A stretch of DNA of 64,000 nt from Fusobacterium necrophorum. Lineage in GTDB: Bacteria; Fusobacteriota; Fusobacteriia; Fusobacteriales; Fusobacteriaceae. The notes beneath the pieces were generated by a model. That model saw only the letters and a list, made by a program, of their open reading frames with translations. It ran no database searches and was not told the DNA's origin. The stretch spans positions 83,401 through 147,400 of the forward strand of contig NZ_SBAP01000001.1 in NCBI RefSeq assembly GCF_004134945.1. Reading direction: 5' to 3'. Positions 1 to 42,652 of the stretch are shown here, in pieces. The position numbers and the translations under genes were made by a program. Positions within the stretch are counted from its first letter, which is position 1. The number at the start of each line of letters is the position of its first letter.

Positions 1-2272
1 CCTGATAACTTTCCAATGCCTTGTTGATTTCCTTTACCTGCTCCGGATACATTCCAATTCCATTGTCCATAATATTGATTAAAATTTGATTGGATTTTTT
101 ATCTTCAATTGCCACAATATTGATTTTTTTATCCAAACGATTTCGAGTTAAAATCGCTTCGGAAGAATTTTTCAAAAGTTCAATAAAAGCCTTGAATAAT
201 TTACTCTTATCGGCATACAAATATCCGCTGCAACTAATAAATTGCGAGAAATTAATCTCATATTTATTCATATAAGGTTGTACATACTTTGACAAATCGT
301 TCATAAATTCTTCCACAGAAATCATCTCGAAATGCTTTTTTGAAAAATTGGAATACTCTTCCAAAATAGCATGGTCAAATTTTATCTTATGAAAGTCTCT
401 CTTCAGTCTTTCTATTTCTTCTAAAGTAATTTTTTTATTATAACCGTTCTTTTCTACTTTGTCAACTAAGCTCTCAATTCGAGAAAACAACTTTTCCCGC
501 CCTTTCATGAAATGTACACTCATTTTTTCCATTGTAGAAGTACGTTCCAAATGTAATTTCCGATCTTCCGCCTCTTTATTTTTCAACTGGATATTCAAAT
601 TGAGTAATAAAAGAGTGAGCAACTCAATTTCTTCCTGCGTAATTTCTCTCTCTCGAATGTAATAATCGATTAAAATGCAGGACTTGACATGTTCACTCCG
701 ATATAAAGGCAAAATAATGAAATGACTGATCCCTAAACTGTCGAATAAATCATTTCCGAATGGAAAACGATATGCCTTATCATTTTCATATAAAATTCTA
801 TTTTCATTTAAACTCTTTCCTAAATAATTACTGCTGTCACAGGAAACTTTCAAGAGAGGCAAAATTCTATCAATTTCATGCAATTGAAAGGAAAACACCT
901 TCAATTTTTCTCTATCTTCCAAACATTCTGCAACTAAACTGCTATTTAAAGCAAAATTTTTCGCCTGTAATATATTTTTTTCTCTATCATATTCCAAATG
1001 AATGGCTCGACTATATCCCAAACCTGCCTCCGAGGTCAAGGCGGATAAAAATCCTTTCATTCCGACACGAAAATCCTGTTCTAAATTTACTCCCATTAAA
1101 ATTTTCTGAATGGCATCAATTCGGTTTAAGTTTTTCTCCAAAGAATCATTGTGTAATTTCAACTGATTTTCTTTCAAGGAAATATTTCTTGCCAATTTTT
1201 CCATAGCATTCGATAAATTTCGAATTTCATATACCGCATCCTCTTCCAAATTAATTTTATAATTTCCTCGTCCAATGTCGTAAACGGCATCCAAAACAGC
1301 CGTTAAAGGTTCCAATAATTTGGCAAATAATTTGGTACAGACTGTCGTACTGATCACAATTAAAATAGAAACCATAAAAATCATCAAAGCGGACATCATA
1401 TACTTCGTTGTCAAAAATTTTTCTTTTGAAATAGCCACTCCAAGACTGGCAATATACTTTGCATTGATATCCCGCAATTTATAAAACGCCATATAGTAAG
1501 CATGCTTGTTAATCTCTTTTTGATTGAAAAAATACTCGAATCCTTCCGGAGCAAAACGGGTAATTTGAAAAGAATCCAACAATTCTCCTCCTGTTTCGTA
1601 GTCCAAATCCCCATATTGATAATGTCCTGCCACGGAAACCAAAATCTTGTCCTCTTCGTTCATTCCTATAAACTCTCGTAAATTTCCAATAGAATAAGAA
1701 GATACCGGCAAATCTAAAATCACAAACACATTATCCTGAAGTTGAGCTTCATAAAATTTTTGAATAAAGCGAAAAAAAAGCTGCTTATCTTTCTTATAAA
1801 AAAACATGTCCTTTCTGTCATATTTGGAATTTTCCCATTCCTGTATAAAACTCTTCCCCAATATCTGGTAGTGACGTTCAGAACGATTGCTCCCCAAAAG
1901 AATTCCCTCGGCATTTACCAAAGTAATGAAACTGTTGGAATAGGTTTCATACGAATGTTTCATCAACTCGTGACTGATATTTTTGGCAATCTGATCATAA
2001 TATATCCGATTATTTTTTACAATTTCTGTTCCTGCCAATTGAAAGACAGAATTTGTTGCCATGCGAAATGTTTCACGACTGTCTTTTGCCTCCATTAAGT
2101 AAGCTTTGTACAAAAGAAATACCTTTTCTCTTGCAGTATCGGCAAGTCTTTGCTCCATGCTGCTGAATACCATTAAACTGAATACAAGAGCCAAAGATAA
2201 GGAAGTAAAAATAATGGCAATACCATTATAGAATATAATTCGTAACAAAAGAGAATCTCTTTTTATTTGCAT
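1..2272 (-). CDS. Sensor histidine kinase (TM - extracytoplasmic domain - TM - HAMP - GAF-like - HisKA-like - HATPase_c). 3' end lies beyond window position 1, so the CDS is partial
   Basis: Hand translation of the minus strand from ATG at 2272-2270 (MQIKRDSLLLRIIFYNGIAIIFTSLSLALVFSLMVFSSMEQRLADTAREK...) stays open to position 1. The last in-window residues read IVAIEDKKSNQILINIMDNGIGMYPEQVKEINKALESYQ, a classic HATPase N/G1 box (DNGIGM). A HAMP-like DIGRGNYKINLEEDAVYEIRNLSNAMEKLA segment lies mid-protein. AAGGAG RBS is 6 nt upstream of the ATG and embedded in the last tex codons. The ORF is absent from the supplied track, presumably because it has no stop within the window. Confidence 0.65.
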   Translation of the reverse strand, partial: MQIKRDSLLLRIIFYNGIAIIFTSLSLALVFSLMVFSSMEQRLADTAREKVFLLYKAYLMEAKDSRETFRMATNSVFQLAGTEIVKNNRIYYDQIAKNISHELMKHSYETYSNSFITLVNAEGILLGSNRSERHYQILGKSFIQEWENSKYDRKDMFFYKKDKQLFFRFIQKFYEAQLQDNVFVILDLPVSSYSIGNLREFIGMNEEDKILVSVAGHYQYGDLDYETGGELLDSFQITRFAPEGFEYFFNQKEINKHAYYMAFYKLRDINAKYIASLGVAISKEKFLTTKYMMSALMIFMVSILIVISTTVCTKLFAKLLEPLTAVLDAVYDIGRGNYKINLEEDAVYEIRNLSNAMEKLARNISLKENQLKLHNDSLEKNLNRIDAIQKILMGVNLEQDFRVGMKGFLSALTSEAGLGYSRAIHLEYDREKNILQAKNFALNSSLVAECLEDREKLKVFSFQLHEIDRILPLLKVSCDSSNYLGKSLNENRILYENDKAYRFPFGNDLFDSLGISHFIILPLYRSEHVKSCILIDYYIREREITQEEIELLTLLLLNLNIQLKNKEAEDRKLHLERTSTMEKMSVHFMKGREKLFSRIESLVDKVEKNGYNKKITLEEIERLKRDFHKIKFDHAILEEYSNFSKKHFEMISVEEFMNDLSKYVQPYMNKYEINFSQFISCSGYLYADKSKLFKAFIELLKNSSEAILTRNRLDKKINIVAIEDKKSNQILINIMDNGIGMYPEQVKEINKALESYQ

Positions 2273-4444
2273 CTATAACTCCTTTTTTCGTGTTAATCCA
2301 ACTCTTCCTCTTTCTTTATCAATTTCTTTGATTCTCACTTTAATAATTTGTCCTACTGACAATACTTTGCCCGGATCACTTACAAATTCATCTGAAATAG
2401 CGGAAATATGAAGTAAAGCATCATTTTTCAAACCAATATCCACAAAGGCTCCGAATTTTACAACATTCCGAACCGTTCCTTCCAATTCCATTCCCACACT
2501 CAAATGATCAATACTTAAGATATCGGATTTTAAAAGCGGTTTTTGAAAATCATCTCTCGGATCTCGTCTGTCTTTTCGTAAAGCTTCATACACATCTTTA
2601 CAAGTTTCCAAACCGAAGTCATATTGTTTCGCAAATTTTTCTACTTTGATACTTTTTAATTTTTCACGTGTCTCCACCAACTTCTCATCGTATTCTTGCA
2701 AAGTACATCCAATTTCTTCCAACATTTTTTCTGCAATGTGATAAGATTCCGGGTGAATAATCGTATTGTCTAAAATATTTTCCCCCTCCGGAATCACTAA
2801 AAATCCTGCCATTTGTTCATAGGCTTTCGGACCCAAACCCTTTACCTTCAATAACGTTTCCCGTTTGGTAAAATTTCCATGTTCCTTTCGATAGTCTACA
2901 ATATTTTTAGCAACGTTCTTTTTAATCCCTGAAATATGAGACAACAAAGCCCATGATGCCGTATTTAGATTGGCTCCTACATTATTTACTACCGTTGTGA
3001 TGACCTGATCTAAAGACTCATCCAATCGTCCTTGATTGACATCGTGCTGATACATTCCTACCCCAATGGATTTCGGATCAATTTTAACAAGTTCCGCCAA
3101 AGGATCTTGAATTCTTCGTCCGATGGAAATAGCTCCACGAACAGTTACATCCAAATCCGGAAATTCTTCTGCTGCCAACTTTGAAGCGGAATACACGGAA
3201 GCTCCCGCCTCATTTGCAATCAAATATTTTATTGCTACATTTTCTTCCCGTATCAATTTTGCGATGAAGGACTCGGTTTCTCGAGAAGCCGTTCCGTTCC
3301 CGATGACCACCAAATCAATTCCATACTTTTTAATATAGTGCAACACTTTCTTTCGAGCAGTCTCCAATTGCTTTTCATGGTGCATCCCTTCCACCAGGAA
3401 AAACACATCATTTTCTTGATAAAAACCATGCTTATCCAAGATAGCAACCTTACATCCTGTTCGATATCCCGGATCCAAAGCCAAAATCGTTTTTTCATGC
3501 AAAGGAGCTTGTAAAAGCAAATTCTTCAAATTTTCTCGAAACACCAATATTGCCTCTTCTTCCGCCTTGTCCGTTAAAATATTTCGCACTTCTCTTTCCA
3601 CTGCCGGAAACAATAGACGTTCAAATGAGTCTTGAATAACCGCAGCAAAAAATTCCTGTAAAGCTTCTTCTTGGGTAAAACTTCTCAAAAGTAAATTGTC
3701 CACATGCTTTTTTTCTTTTTCTTCCAAGAATAAATTTACTGATAAAATTCCCTCTTTTTCTCCACGATTGACCGCCAAAATTCTATGAGAAGGAATTTTT
3801 GCCAAAGCTTCTGCATAGTCGTAATAATCTTGGTATATTCCTTTTTCATCCAATTCCTTTGCTTTTTTTGATTCTTTGGAACTCATTTGCCCGTACTTTA
3901 GCAAAATTTCCCGAATTCTTTCTCGATATTCCGCTTTTTCAGAAATTCGCTGTGCCCAAATTAATTTTGCTCCTTCAATAGCCTCTTCCAGATTCGGCAC
4001 TTCTTCTGTCAGAAATTCTTCCGCTTTCGTTCCTATTTCTTCAACATTGTGAGCTACAAGAAAAAAATCCGCCAAAGCTTCCAAGCCTCTTTCCATCGCT
4101 ATATCCGCTTTGGTTTTCTTTTTCTTCCGATAAGGAAAATAAATATCTTCCACCTCTTGTAATTTTTCTGCCGCTTCTATCGCCTGTACCAATTCTTCCG
4201 TTAATTTCCCCTGTTCTTCTATCAAGCGTAGAACTTCTTCTTTTCTCTTCTCCAAATTCCTCAAATATTGAACCTTTTCTAAAATAAGCGTAATTTGAAC
4301 TTCGTCCAAATTTCCTGTGATTTCTTTTCGGTATCTCGAAATAAAGGGGACTGTCGCCCCTTCATCCAATAATTGTACCGTACTTTCCACTTGATTTTCT
4401 CGAAGAGAAAGTTCCTTTGCAACTTTACTAAAAATATTCTCCAT
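2273..4444 (-). CDS. tex: Transcription accessory protein Tex (YqgF/RNase H-like, HhH and S1 RNA-binding domains)
   Basis: 723 aa, typical Tex length. C-terminal S1 domain (GMELEGTVRNVVKFGAFVDIGLKNDALLHIS) and a YqgF-like central region. TAG stop at 2273-2275 directly abuts the ATG of the downstream kinase. Confidence 0.9.
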   Translation of the reverse strand: MENIFSKVAKELSLRENQVESTVQLLDEGATVPFISRYRKEITGNLDEVQITLILEKVQYLRNLEKRKEEVLRLIEEQGKLTEELVQAIEAAEKLQEVEDIYFPYRKKKKTKADIAMERGLEALADFFLVAHNVEEIGTKAEEFLTEEVPNLEEAIEGAKLIWAQRISEKAEYRERIREILLKYGQMSSKESKKAKELDEKGIYQDYYDYAEALAKIPSHRILAVNRGEKEGILSVNLFLEEKEKKHVDNLLLRSFTQEEALQEFFAAVIQDSFERLLFPAVEREVRNILTDKAEEEAILVFRENLKNLLLQAPLHEKTILALDPGYRTGCKVAILDKHGFYQENDVFFLVEGMHHEKQLETARKKVLHYIKKYGIDLVVIGNGTASRETESFIAKLIREENVAIKYLIANEAGASVYSASKLAAEEFPDLDVTVRGAISIGRRIQDPLAELVKIDPKSIGVGMYQHDVNQGRLDESLDQVITTVVNNVGANLNTASWALLSHISGIKKNVAKNIVDYRKEHGNFTKRETLLKVKGLGPKAYEQMAGFLVIPEGENILDNTIIHPESYHIAEKMLEEIGCTLQEYDEKLVETREKLKSIKVEKFAKQYDFGLETCKDVYEALRKDRRDPRDDFQKPLLKSDILSIDHLSVGMELEGTVRNVVKFGAFVDIGLKNDALLHISAISDEFVSDPGKVLSVGQIIKVRIKEIDKERGRVGLTRKKEL

Positions 4445-21057: not shown

Positions 21058-21135
21058 TGGCGGGAGTGACGAGGCTCGAACTCGCGACCTCCTGCGTGAC
21101 AGGCAGGCGCTCTAACCAAACTGAGCTACACCCCC
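21058..21135 (-). tRNA. tRNA-Asp (GTC), CCA encoded
   Basis: Reverse complement reads GGGGGTGTAGCTCAGTTTGGTTAGAGCGCCTGCCTGTCACGCAGGAGGTCGCGAGTTCGAGCCTCGTCACTCCCGCCA. Cloverleaf folds, with anticodon loop CTGTCAC. Confidence 0.85.
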
Positions 21136-21151
21136 AACTTTTATAAAAATA

Positions 21152-21227
21152 TGGTGGTCGCAATAGGACTCGAACCTATGACCCTCTGCTTGTAAGGCAG
21201 ATGCTCTCCCAACTGAGCTATGCGACC
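21152..21227 (-). tRNA. tRNA-Val (TAC), CCA encoded
   Basis: Reverse complement reads GGTCGCATAGCTCAGTTGGGAGAGCATCTGCCTTACAAGCAGAGGGTCATAGGTTCGAGTCCTATTGCGACCACCA. Acceptor stem GGTCGCA/TGCGACC. Confidence 0.85.
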
Positions 21228-21230
21228 GAG

Positions 21231-21305
21231 TGGTACCCCGTAGGGGAATTGAACCCCTGTTTCCAGAGTGAAAATCTGATGTCCTAACCACTGAACGAAC
21301 GGGGC
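21231..21305 (-). tRNA. tRNA-Glu (TTC), CCA encoded
   Basis: Reverse complement reads GCCCCGTTCGTTCAGTGGTTAGGACATCAGATTTTCACTCTGGAAACAGGGGTTCAATTCCCCTACGGGGTACCA. Anticodon loop TTTTCAC. Confidence 0.8.
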
Positions 21306-21314
21306 AGATAATCA

Positions 21315-21390
21315 TGGTGCGTCATACAGGGTTCGAACCTGTGACCCCCTGATTAAGAGTCAGATGCTCTACCAACTGAGCTAATGACGC
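21315..21390 (-). tRNA. tRNA-Lys (CTT), CCA encoded
   Basis: Reverse complement reads GCGTCATTAGCTCAGTTGGTAGAGCATCTGACTCTTAATCAGGGGGTCACAGGTTCGAACCCTGTATGACGCACCA. Anticodon loop CTCTTAA. Confidence 0.8.
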
Positions 21391-21400
21391 AAAATGTTCT

Positions 21401-21477
<77 letters not shown>

Positions 21478-38376: not shown

Positions 38377-38838
38377 TTATTTTTGATATCGTGTCCAATA
38401 TTGTTTTTTCCCAATCAATCCTGCCTTATCAATACTTCCTTTGACTAATAATCTACCATCTTTTTGTAATTGCATATAACTGTGATATGTTTTTCCATTG
38501 ACAGGGGAATAAATATTTCCATGTTCAAATTTATCTTTCTCTTCATTATAATCAAAATTGCTTACAAAATCGATCCCTACCAATTTTCTATGTTTTAATT
38601 GCGGATCCGGATTTTGCAGGTCCATTCTTTCTTTTCCTGCGTACTCTCCTTCTGTGTAAATCGGCATAGTAAGTTCCAAAACTCTCCCGTTATATTTTCC
38701 ATTTTTTGCTTGGTAAATTTCTACAATAATTTGGTTTCCCGTATCCGCTTTCTCCGTAATCCAAGTACCTAATACATCTTCCACCTTTGCATACGCAATA
38801 CTTCCCAATAATAGCATTCCTACTAAAATCTTTTTCAT
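38377..38838 (-). CDS. DUF2147-family secreted protein (paralog 2)
   Basis: Signal peptide plus the same conserved blocks as the 5513-5971 paralog (GTW...GNQIIVEI...GKYNG...ERMDLQNPDP...LVGIDF). Confidence 0.75.
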   Translation of the reverse strand: MKKILVGMLLLGSIAYAKVEDVLGTWITEKADTGNQIIVEIYQAKNGKYNGRVLELTMPIYTEGEYAGKERMDLQNPDPQLKHRKLVGIDFVSNFDYNEEKDKFEHGNIYSPVNGKTYHSYMQLQKDGRLLVKGSIDKAGLIGKKQYWTRYQK

Positions 38839-38948: not shown

Positions 38949-41486
38949 TTATCTATATGTAATCCATTTCACAATCTGCAAAATCACTGTCGGAATAAAA
39001 GCTAAAATATATATCATAAAATATTGTTCCAAACTCAAAGCCGTGATTCCAAAAGTTTTATGTAAAGCCGTCGTAAACAATACTCCATTCAATAGCAGGA
39101 AACCGATTAGAAAAGCGGCAATTGCCATTTTATTTTTCATAAATCCGATTGCAAAAATATTTCGTTTTCCCCGATAATTAAACCCGTGAAACAGTCTTGC
39201 TAAACATAGTACGGAAAATGCCATAGTACTTCCCTTCAAAGCATTTCCTCCTGCCAAGCCGATATGAAACGCAATCAGAATGAAAATAGTGATTAAAATC
39301 CCCTCTAATGAAATTCTTTCCAAGAAATCTCTTGTTAAAATTCCTTCTTTCGGATCTCTCGGCTTTTCATCCAAGACATCTTCATTTCCCGGTTCTACTC
39401 CCACTGCAATTGCCGGTAAACTGTCTGTCAATAAATTGATAAACAATAACTGTACTGCCGAAAAAATTACCGGTAAATTTGCAAAGGATGCATATACTAC
39501 AGCTAAAATAGCCGCCATATTTCCGGACAATAAAAATCCGATGGAATTCTTAATGTTTCGATAGATATTTCTTCCTATGGTAATTGCTCTGACTATCGTA
39601 GAGAAATTGTCATCCGCCAAAATTAAAGAGGCTGCATTCTTAGAAACTTCCGTCCCTGTAATTCCCATAGCAATTCCAATGTCCGCTCTTTTTAAAGCGG
39701 GAGCATCATTTACCCCGTCTCCCGTCATGGCACAAATTTTTCCTAAACTTTGCCAAGCGGAAACAATTCGAATTTTGTGTTCCGGAGATACTCTTGCATA
39801 GACGGAAATTTTCGGAACCGTTTCAATCAACTCTTCCTGAGAAAGCTTTTCCACATCGATTCCTTCCAACACGGAATCTCCCTCTTCAAAAATACCAATT
39901 TCTCTTGCAATGGTTCTTGCGGTAATTTTATGATCTCCTGTGATCATAATAGGTTTGATTCCGGCCCTTCGACATTCCGCCACTGCCTGAACGGATTCCT
40001 GTCTTGGAGGATCTATCATTCCCACAAGCCCTAAAAATACATATTTTTCTTCATCAAATAAGGTAATATCTTTCGACTTCACATATCGATATCCAAAACT
40101 TAAAACCCTCATTCCGTCTTCCGCAAATTTTTCATTGACCAATTTAATTCGTTCAATGTCCGCTTCCGTAATATCTCGTACTTCTCCATCCATATCGATT
40201 TTTATCACTCTGGGAAGTAAACTGTCCAAAGCTCCTTTTGTGTACATGATATATCTATCCTCTTTGGCATATACCGCACTCATCAATTTCCGTTCGGAAT
40301 CAAATGGAATTTCAGCCAGTCTCGGATGCTCATTTTTTAATACCTGTGCGTCATGCCCATAATTTTCTGCCAATACCACCAAAGCGATTTCTGTAGGATC
40401 CCCGACCGTTTCAGTTGCGTCTGAACAAAGAATACATTCTTCCAAAAGCATTTTATGACTTGCATGTTCTGTTTGTAAAGCTGTTTCTTCTAAAACTTTA
40501 GCATCCAAATATAATTTTTTTACTGTCATTTTGTTTTGTGTTAAAGTCCCTGTTTTATCAGAGCAAATAATCGAAATGGCTCCCAATGATTCCACAGATT
40601 TCAATTCTTTGACAATGGCATTTTGCTTTGCCAATTTTTGAGTTTCTAAAGACAATACTATGGTAATAATCGGATTCAATCCCTCCGGAATGGCAGCTAC
40701 TGCTAAAGCAATGGCAAATAGCAGTGATTCCATCATAGAATTCCCGTGATATACATAAATTCCAAAAATTAAGGCACATAGAACTAAAATTACAATGGTT
40801 AAATTCTTTCCGAAACTATCCAAAGCTTTTTGTAAGGGAGTCATTTTTTCTTTTGTTTCTCCCAATAATTTTGCAATGTTTCCGATTTCCGTTTCCATTC
40901 CGATTTTTGTAATTTGAATCACAGCTCTTCCATAATTTACCAAACTTCCGGAATATACTACATTTGTTCTGTCTCCCAAAGGCAAATCTGACATATCCCG
41001 AGTGCTTGGACTCTTTTCCACGGAATTTGACTCCCCCGTCAAAGAATTTTCATTGACCAGAAGAGAATAAGATTCTAAAATACTCGCATCTGCAGGAATA
41101 ATATCCCCCGCTTCCACAAAAACCAAATCTCCGGGAACTAGATCAAAGGCATCAATCTCTATTTTATTTCCATCTCTCATCACTTTGGATTTCGGTGCAG
41201 ATAATTTTCGAAGACTGTCCATAGATTTTTGAGCTTTTACATGTTGTACCGTTCCCATCACAGCATTCACAATTAATACTAAAATAATAACAAAGGTACT
41301 TTCTATATTTCCGGAGACCGCCGATACTATCGATGCCGCAATTAAAATCATAACCAAAGCATCTTTAAATTGTTTCAAAAATACAAGAAATATGCTTTCC
41401 TTTTCTTCTTCCAACAGTACATTTTTTCCATATTGTTCCTGTAATTTTTTCGCTTGTTCCGTGGTCAATCCTTTTACATTCGCCAT
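38949..41486 (-). CDS. Cation-transporting P-type ATPase (PII-type, Ca2+/Mn2+-ATPase-like)
   Basis: Phosphorylation motif CSDKTGTLT, hinge TGDGVNDAPAL and TGES loop, with ten predicted TM segments. Start moved to the second ATG (41486, MANVKG) because GGAGGAG lies 4 nt upstream of it. The track ORF starts at 41498. Confidence 0.85.
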   Translation of the reverse strand: MANVKGLTTEQAKKLQEQYGKNVLLEEEKESIFLVFLKQFKDALVMILIAASIVSAVSGNIESTFVIILVLIVNAVMGTVQHVKAQKSMDSLRKLSAPKSKVMRDGNKIEIDAFDLVPGDLVFVEAGDIIPADASILESYSLLVNENSLTGESNSVEKSPSTRDMSDLPLGDRTNVVYSGSLVNYGRAVIQITKIGMETEIGNIAKLLGETKEKMTPLQKALDSFGKNLTIVILVLCALIFGIYVYHGNSMMESLLFAIALAVAAIPEGLNPIITIVLSLETQKLAKQNAIVKELKSVESLGAISIICSDKTGTLTQNKMTVKKLYLDAKVLEETALQTEHASHKMLLEECILCSDATETVGDPTEIALVVLAENYGHDAQVLKNEHPRLAEIPFDSERKLMSAVYAKEDRYIMYTKGALDSLLPRVIKIDMDGEVRDITEADIERIKLVNEKFAEDGMRVLSFGYRYVKSKDITLFDEEKYVFLGLVGMIDPPRQESVQAVAECRRAGIKPIMITGDHKITARTIAREIGIFEEGDSVLEGIDVEKLSQEELIETVPKISVYARVSPEHKIRIVSAWQSLGKICAMTGDGVNDAPALKRADIGIAMGITGTEVSKNAASLILADDNFSTIVRAITIGRNIYRNIKNSIGFLLSGNMAAILAVVYASFANLPVIFSAVQLLFINLLTDSLPAIAVGVEPGNEDVLDEKPRDPKEGILTRDFLERISLEGILITIFILIAFHIGLAGGNALKGSTMAFSVLCLARLFHGFNYRGKRNIFAIGFMKNKMAIAAFLIGFLLLNGVLFTTALHKTFGITALSLEQYFMIYILAFIPTVILQIVKWITYR

Positions 41487-41506
41487 ATTCTCCTCCATAT
41501 TTTTTA

Positions 41507-41645
41507 ATAAAAAAGACTCTTGATATAAAGCTCCGCTTTACATCAAAAGTCTTGTTACCTAACAGGCTATAGTACCAGATGTATTCACATCGGGATTGTT
41601 GATACTATATTTGAAACTACTCCCTTTTCCATGTGTATATAGAAT
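41507..41645 (-). promoter_or_regulatory. Structured 5' leader of the P-type ATPase gene: candidate metal-sensing riboswitch (yybP-ykoY/Mn2+-like features) with an overlapping intrinsic terminator
   Basis: The minus-strand leader contains GGAAAAGGGAGUAGUUUCAA, matching the conserved GGGAGUAG core of yybP-ykoY. It is followed by a 19-bp imperfect terminator hairpin (AAGACUUUUGAUGUAAAGC / GCUUUAUAUCAAGAGUCUU) and U6, ending 9 nt before the RBS. The CUUUU at the 5' base of the terminator can instead pair with the AAAAG preceding GGGAGUAG. That would be a mutually exclusive P1 versus terminator arrangement. No covariance-model search was possible. Confidence 0.4.
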
Positions 41646-41689
41646 AACATATTTATTATTTTTTTTCAAGAAATATCTGAAAATCTTTT

Positions 41690-42652
41690 TTATTTTTCCT
41701 CTAAAGAAATTAAAGTGGAGCTATTATTTCCCTGTACTTTCGGAAGATGACCGTCCCACTTTTCAATAGCCATTTTTCTTAATAATTGAGGGCTCAAAGA
41801 TTGAGATTCCACTGCATTGGCTTTTGCTCGAATTTCTCTTTCTCTTAGTTCCAACTCGGCTACCTTGACACGATTTTCCTGTTCCACCAGTAATTTTGCC
41901 TGTTCCGCTCTTGCTTTTTCCACTGCTTGTTCTGCAACTTTTTTCGCTTCAATCGCCTTCTCGTATTCATCACTAAAATCATGATTCATAATGGAGATAT
42001 TCGATACATTCAAACCATAGGTTGCAAAATCATCCTTTAAATCTTCAAAAATTAATCGTGAAATTTCAGTTCGTTTTGTTACAAATTCTTCAATGGTATA
42101 TTTTGAAATTGCCGCCTGTACCACTTCTTGCACCCTAGGTCGAATAAATCGACTCTCGTGCTTTCCATTAAAAGCCCGATATAACTTTTCGGGATCGGAA
42201 ATACTTGCCTGTACTGTAAATTCAATAAAAATGGATTGAATATCTTTCGTAGATACCTCTAAAGTAGTATTCGACTCTTCCGTTTTTGCAAAAATGTAAG
42301 ACTTTTCTCTTGTTTCTAAAAAAGTTTTTGATTGAACAAAAGGAATTTTAAAATGCAATCCTTCTTCATCAATCCGGCTAATTTTTCCCCAAGTGGAAAC
42401 AATAGCAACTTCTCCCGTATTTACTGTATAACAGTTTGAAAACCCAATCCCCAAGAAAAACACAAGCACTAAAATTCCAAAAATTCCCATGACAGATTTT
42501 CCTATACTGATATTTTTCATCATCTCCGCTCCTTTGTTTCCATCTTTCATTCTCTCTACTCCTTTTAGTATTTTTTTATCCTTTATTATTTTCCATGTTT
42601 GAAACACAAGAATAGCAAGAATCACTACAACAATTTCCATATTTTCCCCCAA
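41690..42652 (-). CDS. SPFH/band-7 (stomatin/prohibitin/HflKC) domain membrane protein
   Basis: N-terminal TM helices then band-7 domain (YTVNTGEVAIVSTWGKISRIDEEGLHFKIPFVQ) and a C-terminal coiled coil. Confidence 0.8.
   Translation of the reverse strand: MGENMEIVVVILAILVFQTWKIIKDKKILKGVERMKDGNKGAEMMKNISIGKSVMGIFGILVLVFFLGIGFSNCYTVNTGEVAIVSTWGKISRIDEEGLHFKIPFVQSKTFLETREKSYIFAKTEESNTTLEVSTKDIQSIFIEFTVQASISDPEKLYRAFNGKHESRFIRPRVQEVVQAAISKYTIEEFVTKRTEISRLIFEDLKDDFATYGLNVSNISIMNHDFSDEYEKAIEAKKVAEQAVEKARAEQAKLLVEQENRVKVAELELREREIRAKANAVESQSLSPQLLRKMAIEKWDGHLPKVQGNNSSTLISLEEK

Follow-up and report, generated by a model that had tools for sequence, protein, structure and literature searches.

A yybP-ykoY (Mn2+) family riboswitch lacking helix P2 as the probable anti-termination switch of an LMCA1-like cation-efflux ATPase gene in Fusobacterium necrophorum

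[quoted passage not shown] A conserved adenosine of L1 makes a cross-helix A-minor contact and is stacked upon by the first A of L3 (consensus ACAUACU); Mn2+ is coordinated by the adenosine at the third position of L3, which is absolutely conserved (PMC12153347). Two accepted members of the family lack one of the helices. The aptamer of alx has no P2, and alx-like members, with UCAUUAC as L3, have been reported from Enterobacteriales only (PMC12153347). The other is mgtA of Streptococcus pneumoniae, in which P4 is missing and UNAAA stands in its place: it forms a three-way junction followed by a terminator, lies before the gene of a PII-type ATPase, and responds to Mn2+ and to Ca2+ (PMC6649816). 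In vitro the mgtA aptamer has a higher affinity for Ca2+ than for Mn2+, and read-through is activated far better by Mn2+, in vitro as well as in vivo (PMC6649816). Riboswitches of the family also drive the P-type ATPase genes yoaB of Lactococcus lactis and CD2503 of Clostridioides difficile, and the homologous pumps encoded by yoaB and mgtA confer protection against Mn2+.

The element described here lies on the minus strand of the window, i.e. the whole stretch of 64,000 nucleotides that was analysed, in the leader between an SPFH/Band-7 gene (stop codon at 41690-41692, minus strand) and the ATPase gene of which it is the upstream neighbour. The original prediction had given this leader a length of 190 nt and had seen in it a block close to the most conserved element of yybP-ykoY riboswitches, a strong terminator just before the ribosome binding site, and a CUUUU in the terminator arm that could pair instead with an AAAAG preceding the block. 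The length was an underestimate, the distance from the SPFH stop to the ATG being 203 nt; the three features are all there on the minus strand, as direct reading and a terminator scan show (Table 1). AAAAGGGAGTAG covers positions 41628-41617, with the L1 block GGGAGUAG at 41624-41617 and its counterpart AAGAC at 41553-41549, and 64 nt separate AAAAGGGAGUAG from the 19-bp intrinsic terminator located downstream. A scan for promoter consensus found a promoter-like site with 9 matches out of 12 plus the TG; on this consensus match, transcription is predicted to start at about 41634, a few nucleotides ahead of the aptamer. The leader as a whole folds with −44.3 kcal/mol (z = −4.47), and none of 200 shuffled versions folded equally well.

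The ATG at 41486 is most plausibly the start of the 845-amino-acid ATPase, with which the orthologue L001 aligns from residue 1. Pfam assigns E1-E2_ATPase, Cation_ATPase_N and Cation_ATPase_C to the protein; in NCBIfam the best models are PMR1-type and SERCA-type Ca2+-ATPases, all of them below the equivalog cut-offs. The nearest solved structure is that of LMCA1 from Listeria (E 1e-216), with about half of the aligned residues identical as judged by eye in the alignment, and the next is that of the Ca2+/Mn2+ pump SPCA1. The ATPase of Fusobacterium necrophorum strain ATCC 25286 is 98% identical to that of the window.

Table 1. Features of the leader and of the ATPase gene, with positions counted along the window.
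Feature	Positions	Strand	Details and basis
Promoter-like site	41641..41669	−	−35 TTGAAA 41669-41664, 17-nt spacer, extended −10 TG-n-TATTCT 41648-41641
Whole aptamer, yybP-ykoY (Mn2+) type, 88 nt, predicted three-way junction without P2	41544..41631	−	Covariance model R1, conservation, covariation
P1.1, 5′ strand AAAAG (switch helix)	41624..41628	−	Pairs with 41549-41545; 97.9% of cells paired
L1, 5′ side GGAGUA, including the adenosine of the cross-helix A-minor contact	41618..41623	−	GGAGTA in 66/66 aligned leaders
P1.2, 5′ strand GUU	41615..41617	−	Pairs with 41556-41554; two-sided changes at 3/3 pairs
Junction UCAAA at the place of helix P2	41610..41614	−	4-7 nt in 66/66 leaders, mostly nnAAn
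P3 arm	41568..41609	−	P3.1 41609-41600 with 41577-41568; L3 ACAAUCCC 41599-41592; P3.2 hairpin 41591-41578
P4 mini-hairpin GCC-UGUUA-GGU	41557..41567	−	Model-based alignment: 91.3% of cells paired, double changes at 2/4 pairs
P1.2 3′ strand AAC, L1 3′ side AAGA and P1.1 3′ strand CUUUU	41545..41556	−	A80 G81 A82 C83 invariant
Intrinsic terminator, 19-bp stem 41553-41513 and U-tract	41507..41553	−	Terminator scan; hairpin −22.4 kcal/mol
RBS and start codon	41484..41496	−	GGAGGAG 41496-41490; ATG 41486-41484; read from the sequence
P2A-type cation ATPase of the LMCA1/PMR1 kind, 845 aa	38949..41486	−	NCBIfam and Pfam assignments

Our reading of this leader, to which we give a probability of roughly 85%, is that it holds a riboswitch of the yybP-ykoY (Mn2+) family acting as an anti-termination ON switch for the LMCA1-like P2A-type cation-efflux ATPase. 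The evidence that carries it comes first of all from the orthologous leaders. Of the best 80 genomic loci encoding ATPase relatives, which share 52-98% identity and come from Fusobacterium, Cetobacterium, Clostridium and other Bacillota, 75 have the element just upstream of the ATPase gene, at about 60-420 nt before the start codon. Since the SPFH gene precedes it only in two F. necrophorum-like loci, the element belongs with the ATPase rather than with the gene before it. When 59 non-identical copies are aligned with MAFFT, the invariant positions are G8-A14 (GGGAGUA), C31-A35 (CAACA), C40, U55 G56 G57, C67 and A80 G81 A82 C83, and the UCA/UGG pairs closing P3.1 and flanking L3 do not vary among the aligned leaders. 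L3 begins with ACA in 66 out of 66 leaders and is 7-8 nt long in the set (ACAAUCCC in the window), and the 3′ side of L1 is either AAGA or GAGA in all 66.

Five helices were placed by analogy with the architecture of the family and then tested on two alignments. In the MAFFT alignment, which is blind to structure, 89.5% of the cells pair, compared with 34-46% after the 3′ partners have been moved by 1-3 columns; double changes are found at 17 of the 26 pairs, and none of 500 column shuffles reaches any of these measures. P4 is one column off register in that alignment, where its pairing is 42%, and this was corrected by realignment with R1, a covariance model built from these orthologous ATPase leaders alone. 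The realignment of 66 copies, which leans to the model by its nature, gives 95.7% of paired cells against 35-47% in the slid controls and double changes at 18 of 27 pairs, again with 0/500 shuffles. Helix by helix, double changes occur at 3/3 pairs of P1.2 (the third of which is U-A, A-U or C-G among the leaders), 7/10 of P3.1, 5/5 of P3.2, 2/4 of P4 and 1/5 of P1.1. Covariation is thus strong for P1.2, P3.1 and P3.2, moderate for P4 and weak for P1.1. The latter helix is nearly invariant: one A-U pair is replaced by G-C in three sequences, with never an A-C mismatch at that pair, and the same replacement, likewise free of A-C, is seen in three metagenome copies. Covariation being thin for P1.1 (three G-C cells), it is mainly the analogy with the family and the lack of mismatches that point to this helix. 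When RNAalifold was run unguided, it predicted P3.1 and P3.2; P1.1, P1.2 and P4 were not among its predictions and owe their placement to the family architecture.

The original prediction had expressed doubt about a full four-way junction, and this doubt was justified. Just 4-7 nt lie between P1.2 and P3.1, which is too short for a hairpin, so that the aptamer is predicted to be a three-way junction from which helix P2 is absent; the crystallised architecture, a four-way junction that has P2 as well as P4, was found in none of the 66 leaders. A few distant orthologues may be built differently. Those at L062, L071, L072, L075 and L076 have extra sequence after GGGAGUAG, able to form a P2-like hairpin as judged by eye in L071 only, and they score 20-30 bits with R1; L077 looked P2-less. 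Four-way and three-way versions both appear to precede the same ATPase gene family.

The search with the Rfam model that the original prediction had proposed as a check was negative. With Rfam 15 at gathering scores the whole window yielded five tRNAs only and no RF00080 (yybP-ykoY). At E ≤ 10 on 41400-41800 (401 nt) RF00080 was not found either, just noise such as miRNA and snoRNA models, and neither the M-box (ykoK) nor the czcD (NiCo) model matched the leader. In searches covering 17 loci and 7 loci, RF00080 matched none of the ATPase leaders, and neither the window nor the tested orthologous leaders reached the gathering threshold of 45 bits. This negative result does not discriminate, however, because the same copy of Rfam fails on validated riboswitches: mntP of E. 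coli K-12 scores 41.6 bits with RF00080, under the gathering score of 45, and the model gave nothing for alx of the same strain when 3 kb were searched at E ≤ 1. In the consensus structure of RF00080, as seen in the alignment with mntP, the L1 block is unpaired and the 3′ strand of P1 is not included. The Rfam match was consequently dropped as the deciding test of membership after these two controls. Thus, of the two grounds on which the original prediction would have been abandoned, the lack of a covariance-model match applies to RF00080, while the other, a lack of conservation of the block and of the helix pattern in orthologous leaders, clearly does not.

R1 finds the aptamer of the window with 84.9 bits (E 6e-19), as its sole match in 64 kb. 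Run with filters off on the E. coli loci, it ranks alx first (18.4 bits, E 0.0028; 18.4-21.3 bits over the searches made) and also mntP first (16.1 bits, E 0.011, overlapping the RF00080 match), these cross-matches being weak (16-18 bits) and their E-values rough, from a shortened calibration. Both matches coincide exactly with the known riboswitches, and in both cases GGGAGUAG, UCA(A/U)CA, (U/C)GG and AGAC are aligned in register. The element thus has the L1 internal loop, with GGGAGUAG and its extruded adenosine on the 5′ side and (N)AGA(C) on the 3′ side, and an L3 that starts with ACA and includes the position of the Mn-coordinating adenosine. Its two covarying legs, P1.1-L1-P1.2 and P3.1-L3-P3.2, meet at a multi-helix junction; it is positioned upstream of a cation exporter gene (P2A-type ATPase), and the 3′ strand of its P1.1 can pair alternatively with the expression platform. 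The three-way form does not disqualify it, because alx without P2 and mgtA without P4 are both accepted members. It does not belong to the alx-like subgroup: L3 has an A first, the platform is a terminator and the hosts are Fusobacteriota and Bacillota, so that the absence of P2 alone is in common. We conclude that the leader holds a genuine member of the known yybP-ykoY riboswitch family, as the original prediction had suggested, and not a new kind of system, since the missing helix, the association with an ATPase and the ON-terminator logic have each been published before. In the literature collection that was searched, ‘manganese riboswitch’ as a phrase did not occur together with Fusobacterium in any paper.

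Additional copies were sought in metagenome contigs, scanned by pattern for the P2-less spacing. This returned 80 stretches, of which R1 confirmed 19; the remaining 61 were set aside as chance matches, mostly in coding DNA. An ATPase homologue (42-63% identity) follows 16 of the 19 confirmed copies. In the three others no ATPase was found after the element: at L090 the next ORF encodes a CitMHS/ArsB-type permease, at L146 a short next ORF resembles the N-terminus of that same permease, and the third is L155. RF00080 matched none of the 20 metagenome stretches on which it was tried.

The expression platform is an intrinsic terminator, AAGACTTTTGATGTAAAGC-GGA-GCTTTATATCAAGAGTCTT, with 19 pairs and TTTTATT after them; no other terminator-like site lies in 41300-41900, for which shuffles give an expectation of 0.3. 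Its 5′ arm has AAGA and CUUUU (41553-41545) in common with the aptamer. The same arrangement recurs in the orthologues: in 75 out of 76 elements the terminator with its T-run starts at the A of AGAC or at most 3 nt from it, and in 63 exactly at that A. Hence the nucleotides of its 5′ arm are those that form the 3′ side of L1 and the 3′ strand of P1.1. Where P1.1 has G-C for A-U (L015 and L080), the 3′ arm of the terminator has the matching G. In the window leader the minimum-energy fold has the terminator together with P3 and P4 and amounts to −39.2 kcal/mol, compared with −24.3 kcal/mol for the best fold when P1.1 and P1.2 are enforced, so that termination (OFF) is the predicted default. These observations support the alternative pairing of a transcriptional ON switch that the original prediction had put forward; for the direction of the switch we rely on analogy with S. 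pneumoniae mgtA, where ON logic has been demonstrated.

The switch could then work as follows. Without metal, the weak, A-U-rich P1.1 (AAAAG/CUUUU) would fail to hold, AAGACUUUU would be taken up as the 5′ arm of the 19-bp terminator with its U-tract, and transcription would end before the ATPase gene. With Mn2+ in excess, and possibly also with Ca2+, the loops L1 and L3 would dock around the ion and lock P1.1 and L1; this would keep AGACUUUU from the terminator and let RNA polymerase continue into the gene of the pump, which would export the metal. The conservation, the covarying helices, the overlap of the terminator with P1.1 and the likeness to validated Mn2+ riboswitches are what the analysis shows; which ion is bound, that the loops dock, which way the regulation runs and what the pump carries we infer.

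Mn2+ is the best-supported ligand, because the metal core is conserved and because homologous pumps under the same family of riboswitches protect against Mn2+. Ca2+ is possibly a co-ligand or an alternative. One may go further and suppose that, with the same fold and the same anti-termination, the physiological ligand is Ca2+ or some other divalent ion, i.e. that the element is a Ca2+-responsive switch for a Ca2+-ATPase. The pump would fit, being nearest to the Listeria Ca2+-ATPase LMCA1 and having Ca2+-ATPases as its best NCBIfam models; so would the tighter binding of Ca2+ by the mgtA aptamer in vitro (PMC6649816), and L3 in these leaders (ACAAUCCC or ACAUCAC) agrees with ACAUACU over its first three or four bases only. 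We nevertheless hold a primary response to Ca2+ to be unlikely. The adenosine whose N7 gives selectivity for Mn2+ is invariant, as are the other bases of the core; in S. pneumoniae the preference for Ca2+ in binding did not carry over to read-through, which Mn2+ activated far better in vitro and in vivo (PMC6649816), and the homologous YoaB and MgtA protect against Mn2+. At this point we may only speculate that the P2-less, P4-keeping aptamers linked to ATPases in Fusobacteriota and Clostridia form a distinct, currently unannotated subclass of yybP-ykoY, in which the 3′ half of L3 and the junction are tuned to another signal such as Ca2+. The chances of this are slim in our estimation; if it were true, it would be the first natural riboswitch to respond primarily to Ca2+.

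Another possibility is that the leader contains no ligand-sensing RNA at all but an ordinary terminator or attenuator, belonging to the SPFH gene or controlled by a protein, with GGGAGUAG as a coincidence or a protein-binding site. The silence of Rfam on riboswitches would agree with this, and so would the statistics of the 8-mer GGGAGTAG, which has 3 copies in the 64-kb window for 0.59 expected, 2 of the 3 within coding sequence, and which by itself is neither significant nor diagnostic. What sets the site above chance is not this 8-mer, it is the conservation of the whole element in orthologous leaders. The terminator lies downstream of the promoter-like site and also of the 88-nt element, which has been retained in two phyla irrespective of the gene before it; four helices covary, and the invariant bases are exactly those of the metal core of a known riboswitch family. 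A terminator of the SPFH gene was rejected, that gene being upstream in only two loci. An explanation that does without a riboswitch is thus already largely refuted, and we regard it as very improbable. Leader-peptide attenuation, in which ribosome stalling on a 15-codon frame ATGGAAAAGGGAGTAG... (MEKGVVSNIVSTIPM), opened by an ATG at 41633-41631 that overlaps the L1 region and ending inside P3.2, would govern the terminator, is hardly credible: the frame has no RBS, conservation tracks RNA pairing and not codons, and the reading is already refuted because orthologues lack the ORF, nearly all of them being without the ATG and reading ATTAAAAGGGAG or similar.

A Mn2+-type riboswitch with anti-termination logic would offer a specific and experimentally accessible account of how metal efflux is regulated in F. 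necrophorum and its relatives, pathogens that live under host-imposed metal stress. It also reveals a blind spot of annotation: a large clade-wide set, present at 75 of the best 80 ATPase loci and in two phyla, with additional copies in metagenomes, is missed by RF00080 of Rfam 15 in the sequences tested, and genome annotation based on that model therefore leaves such leaders blank. The loss of P2, moreover, is not restricted to the enterobacterial lineage of alx.

The element can finally be compared with the systems known so far. The M-box, which controls Mg2+ transporters of the MgtA/MgtE type, and the czcD riboswitch, with its four-helix architecture and metal sites between docked helices, also sense metals in the leaders of cation transporter genes; their conserved sequences bear no relation to those found here, and the M-box is an OFF switch. 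The canonical four-way members (L. lactis yoaB, E. coli mntP and that of Xanthomonas oryzae) share with the element the L1 block GGGAGUAG...(A/G)AGAC, the ACA start of L3 with the Mn-coordinating adenosine, the UCA/UGG pairs closing P3.1, a 3′ strand of P1.1 shared with the platform, the ON logic that we propose, and the position upstream of a metal exporter gene, which for yoaB is also that of a P-type ATPase. Unlike them, the element has a 5-nt linker instead of P2, a P4 cut down to 3-4 bp and an L3 of 7-8 nt with another 3′ half, and it is not found by RF00080 of Rfam 15 at the thresholds tried. With alx of E. coli, an Mn2+/alkaline-pH riboswitch, it shares the missing P2 and the failure of RF00080 to detect it, and alx is the better match to R1 of the two E. 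coli riboswitches. In contrast, alx is translational, has a long P4 with terminator and pause site, UCAUUAC as L3 and a TerC-family exporter as its gene, whereas the element combines a canonical ACA-type L3 with a tiny P4, a plain terminator and an ATPase gene, in Fusobacteriota and Clostridia. The resemblance to mgtA of S. pneumoniae, through which the presence of such elements before PII-type ATPases in streptococci, cited in the original prediction, is documented (PMC6649816), extends to the kind of pump, the three-way junction, the terminator with U-tract directly after the aptamer, the design as a fail-safe ON switch, proposed for the element, and the invariant AGA on the 3′ side of L1. 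The difference resides in the helix that was given up: mgtA has kept P2 and lost P4 (UNAAA), while in the element P2 is replaced by nnAAn and P4 is kept. As far as can be judged from these predicted structures, the element therefore mixes features, the absence of P2 as in alx and the ATPase and terminator as in mgtA, with an A-first L3 and a P4 that is retained.

The P2-less subclass of the yybP-ykoY aptamer is not exclusive to ATPase genes, since three metagenome contigs (L090, L146 and L155) carry copies that have no ATPase gene directly after them. These copies are GC-richer and carry AGACCUUU. The one in L090 is followed by an ORF for a CitMHS/ArsB-type permease (Pfam PF03600, E 5e-51), and the short ORF located 3′ of the L146 aptamer resembles, by eye, the N-terminus of that permease. 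The ATPase gene of Clostridium senegalense is preceded by two complete P2-less aptamer-plus-terminator units in tandem, separated by a stretch containing a promoter-like TTGACA...TATAT. The aptamer is absent from three ATPase orthologues (L026, L054 and L060, of Cetobacterium, Clostridium and Fusobacterium MAGs), all of which have full upstream sequence. A terminator-like hairpin, AAGACTTTAAG...CTTAAAGTCTTTTTTTT, is still present in L026, which suggests that the riboswitch has decayed or been rearranged there. A SAM-I riboswitch with no connection to the ATPase-leader aptamer lies in another Cetobacterium MAG (L013; 7799-7886, 74.1 bits), roughly 2 kb downstream from the ATPase locus.

In the window, the ATPase gene is followed, after 110 nt and on the same strand, by a gene for a DUF2147 protein, which is likewise found downstream of the ATPase in the orthologous locus L002; it might be co-transcribed with the ATPase and hence be under the same riboswitch. 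The ATPase leader also contains a 15-codon ORF, whose ATG shares sequence with the 5′ end of the aptamer. This ORF lacks an RBS and shows no conservation among orthologous leaders, and so is probably spurious. Five clustered tRNA genes were seen elsewhere in the window (21061-21476, minus strand; Rfam tRNA, 63-75 bits).

Positions of the features discussed
Feature	Sequence	Position	Strand	Remark
Aptamer-plus-terminator unit 1	L015 (C. senegalense)	2501-2617		70.7 bits
Aptamer-plus-terminator unit 2	L015 (C. senegalense)	2773-2867		82.1 bits
P2-less aptamer	L090	12988-13097		
P2-less aptamer	L146	268-379		
P2-less aptamer	L155	9407-9520		
DUF2147 protein gene	window	38377-38838	minus	
15-codon ORF	window	41589-41633	minus	MEKGVVSNIVSTIPM
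mntP leader	L081 (E. coli K-12)	962-1058		validated riboswitch
alx leader	L082 (E. coli K-12)	874-1000		validated riboswitch

When the two E. coli riboswitches were compared with RF00080 of Rfam 15 (177 positions, gathering score 45), no match at E <= 1 was obtained for alx, and mntP reached only 41.6 bits. As printed, the consensus structure of RF00080 leaves the L1 block unpaired and lacks the 3′ strand of P1. RF00080 seems to be drawn too narrowly to cover a large part of the yybP-ykoY family.
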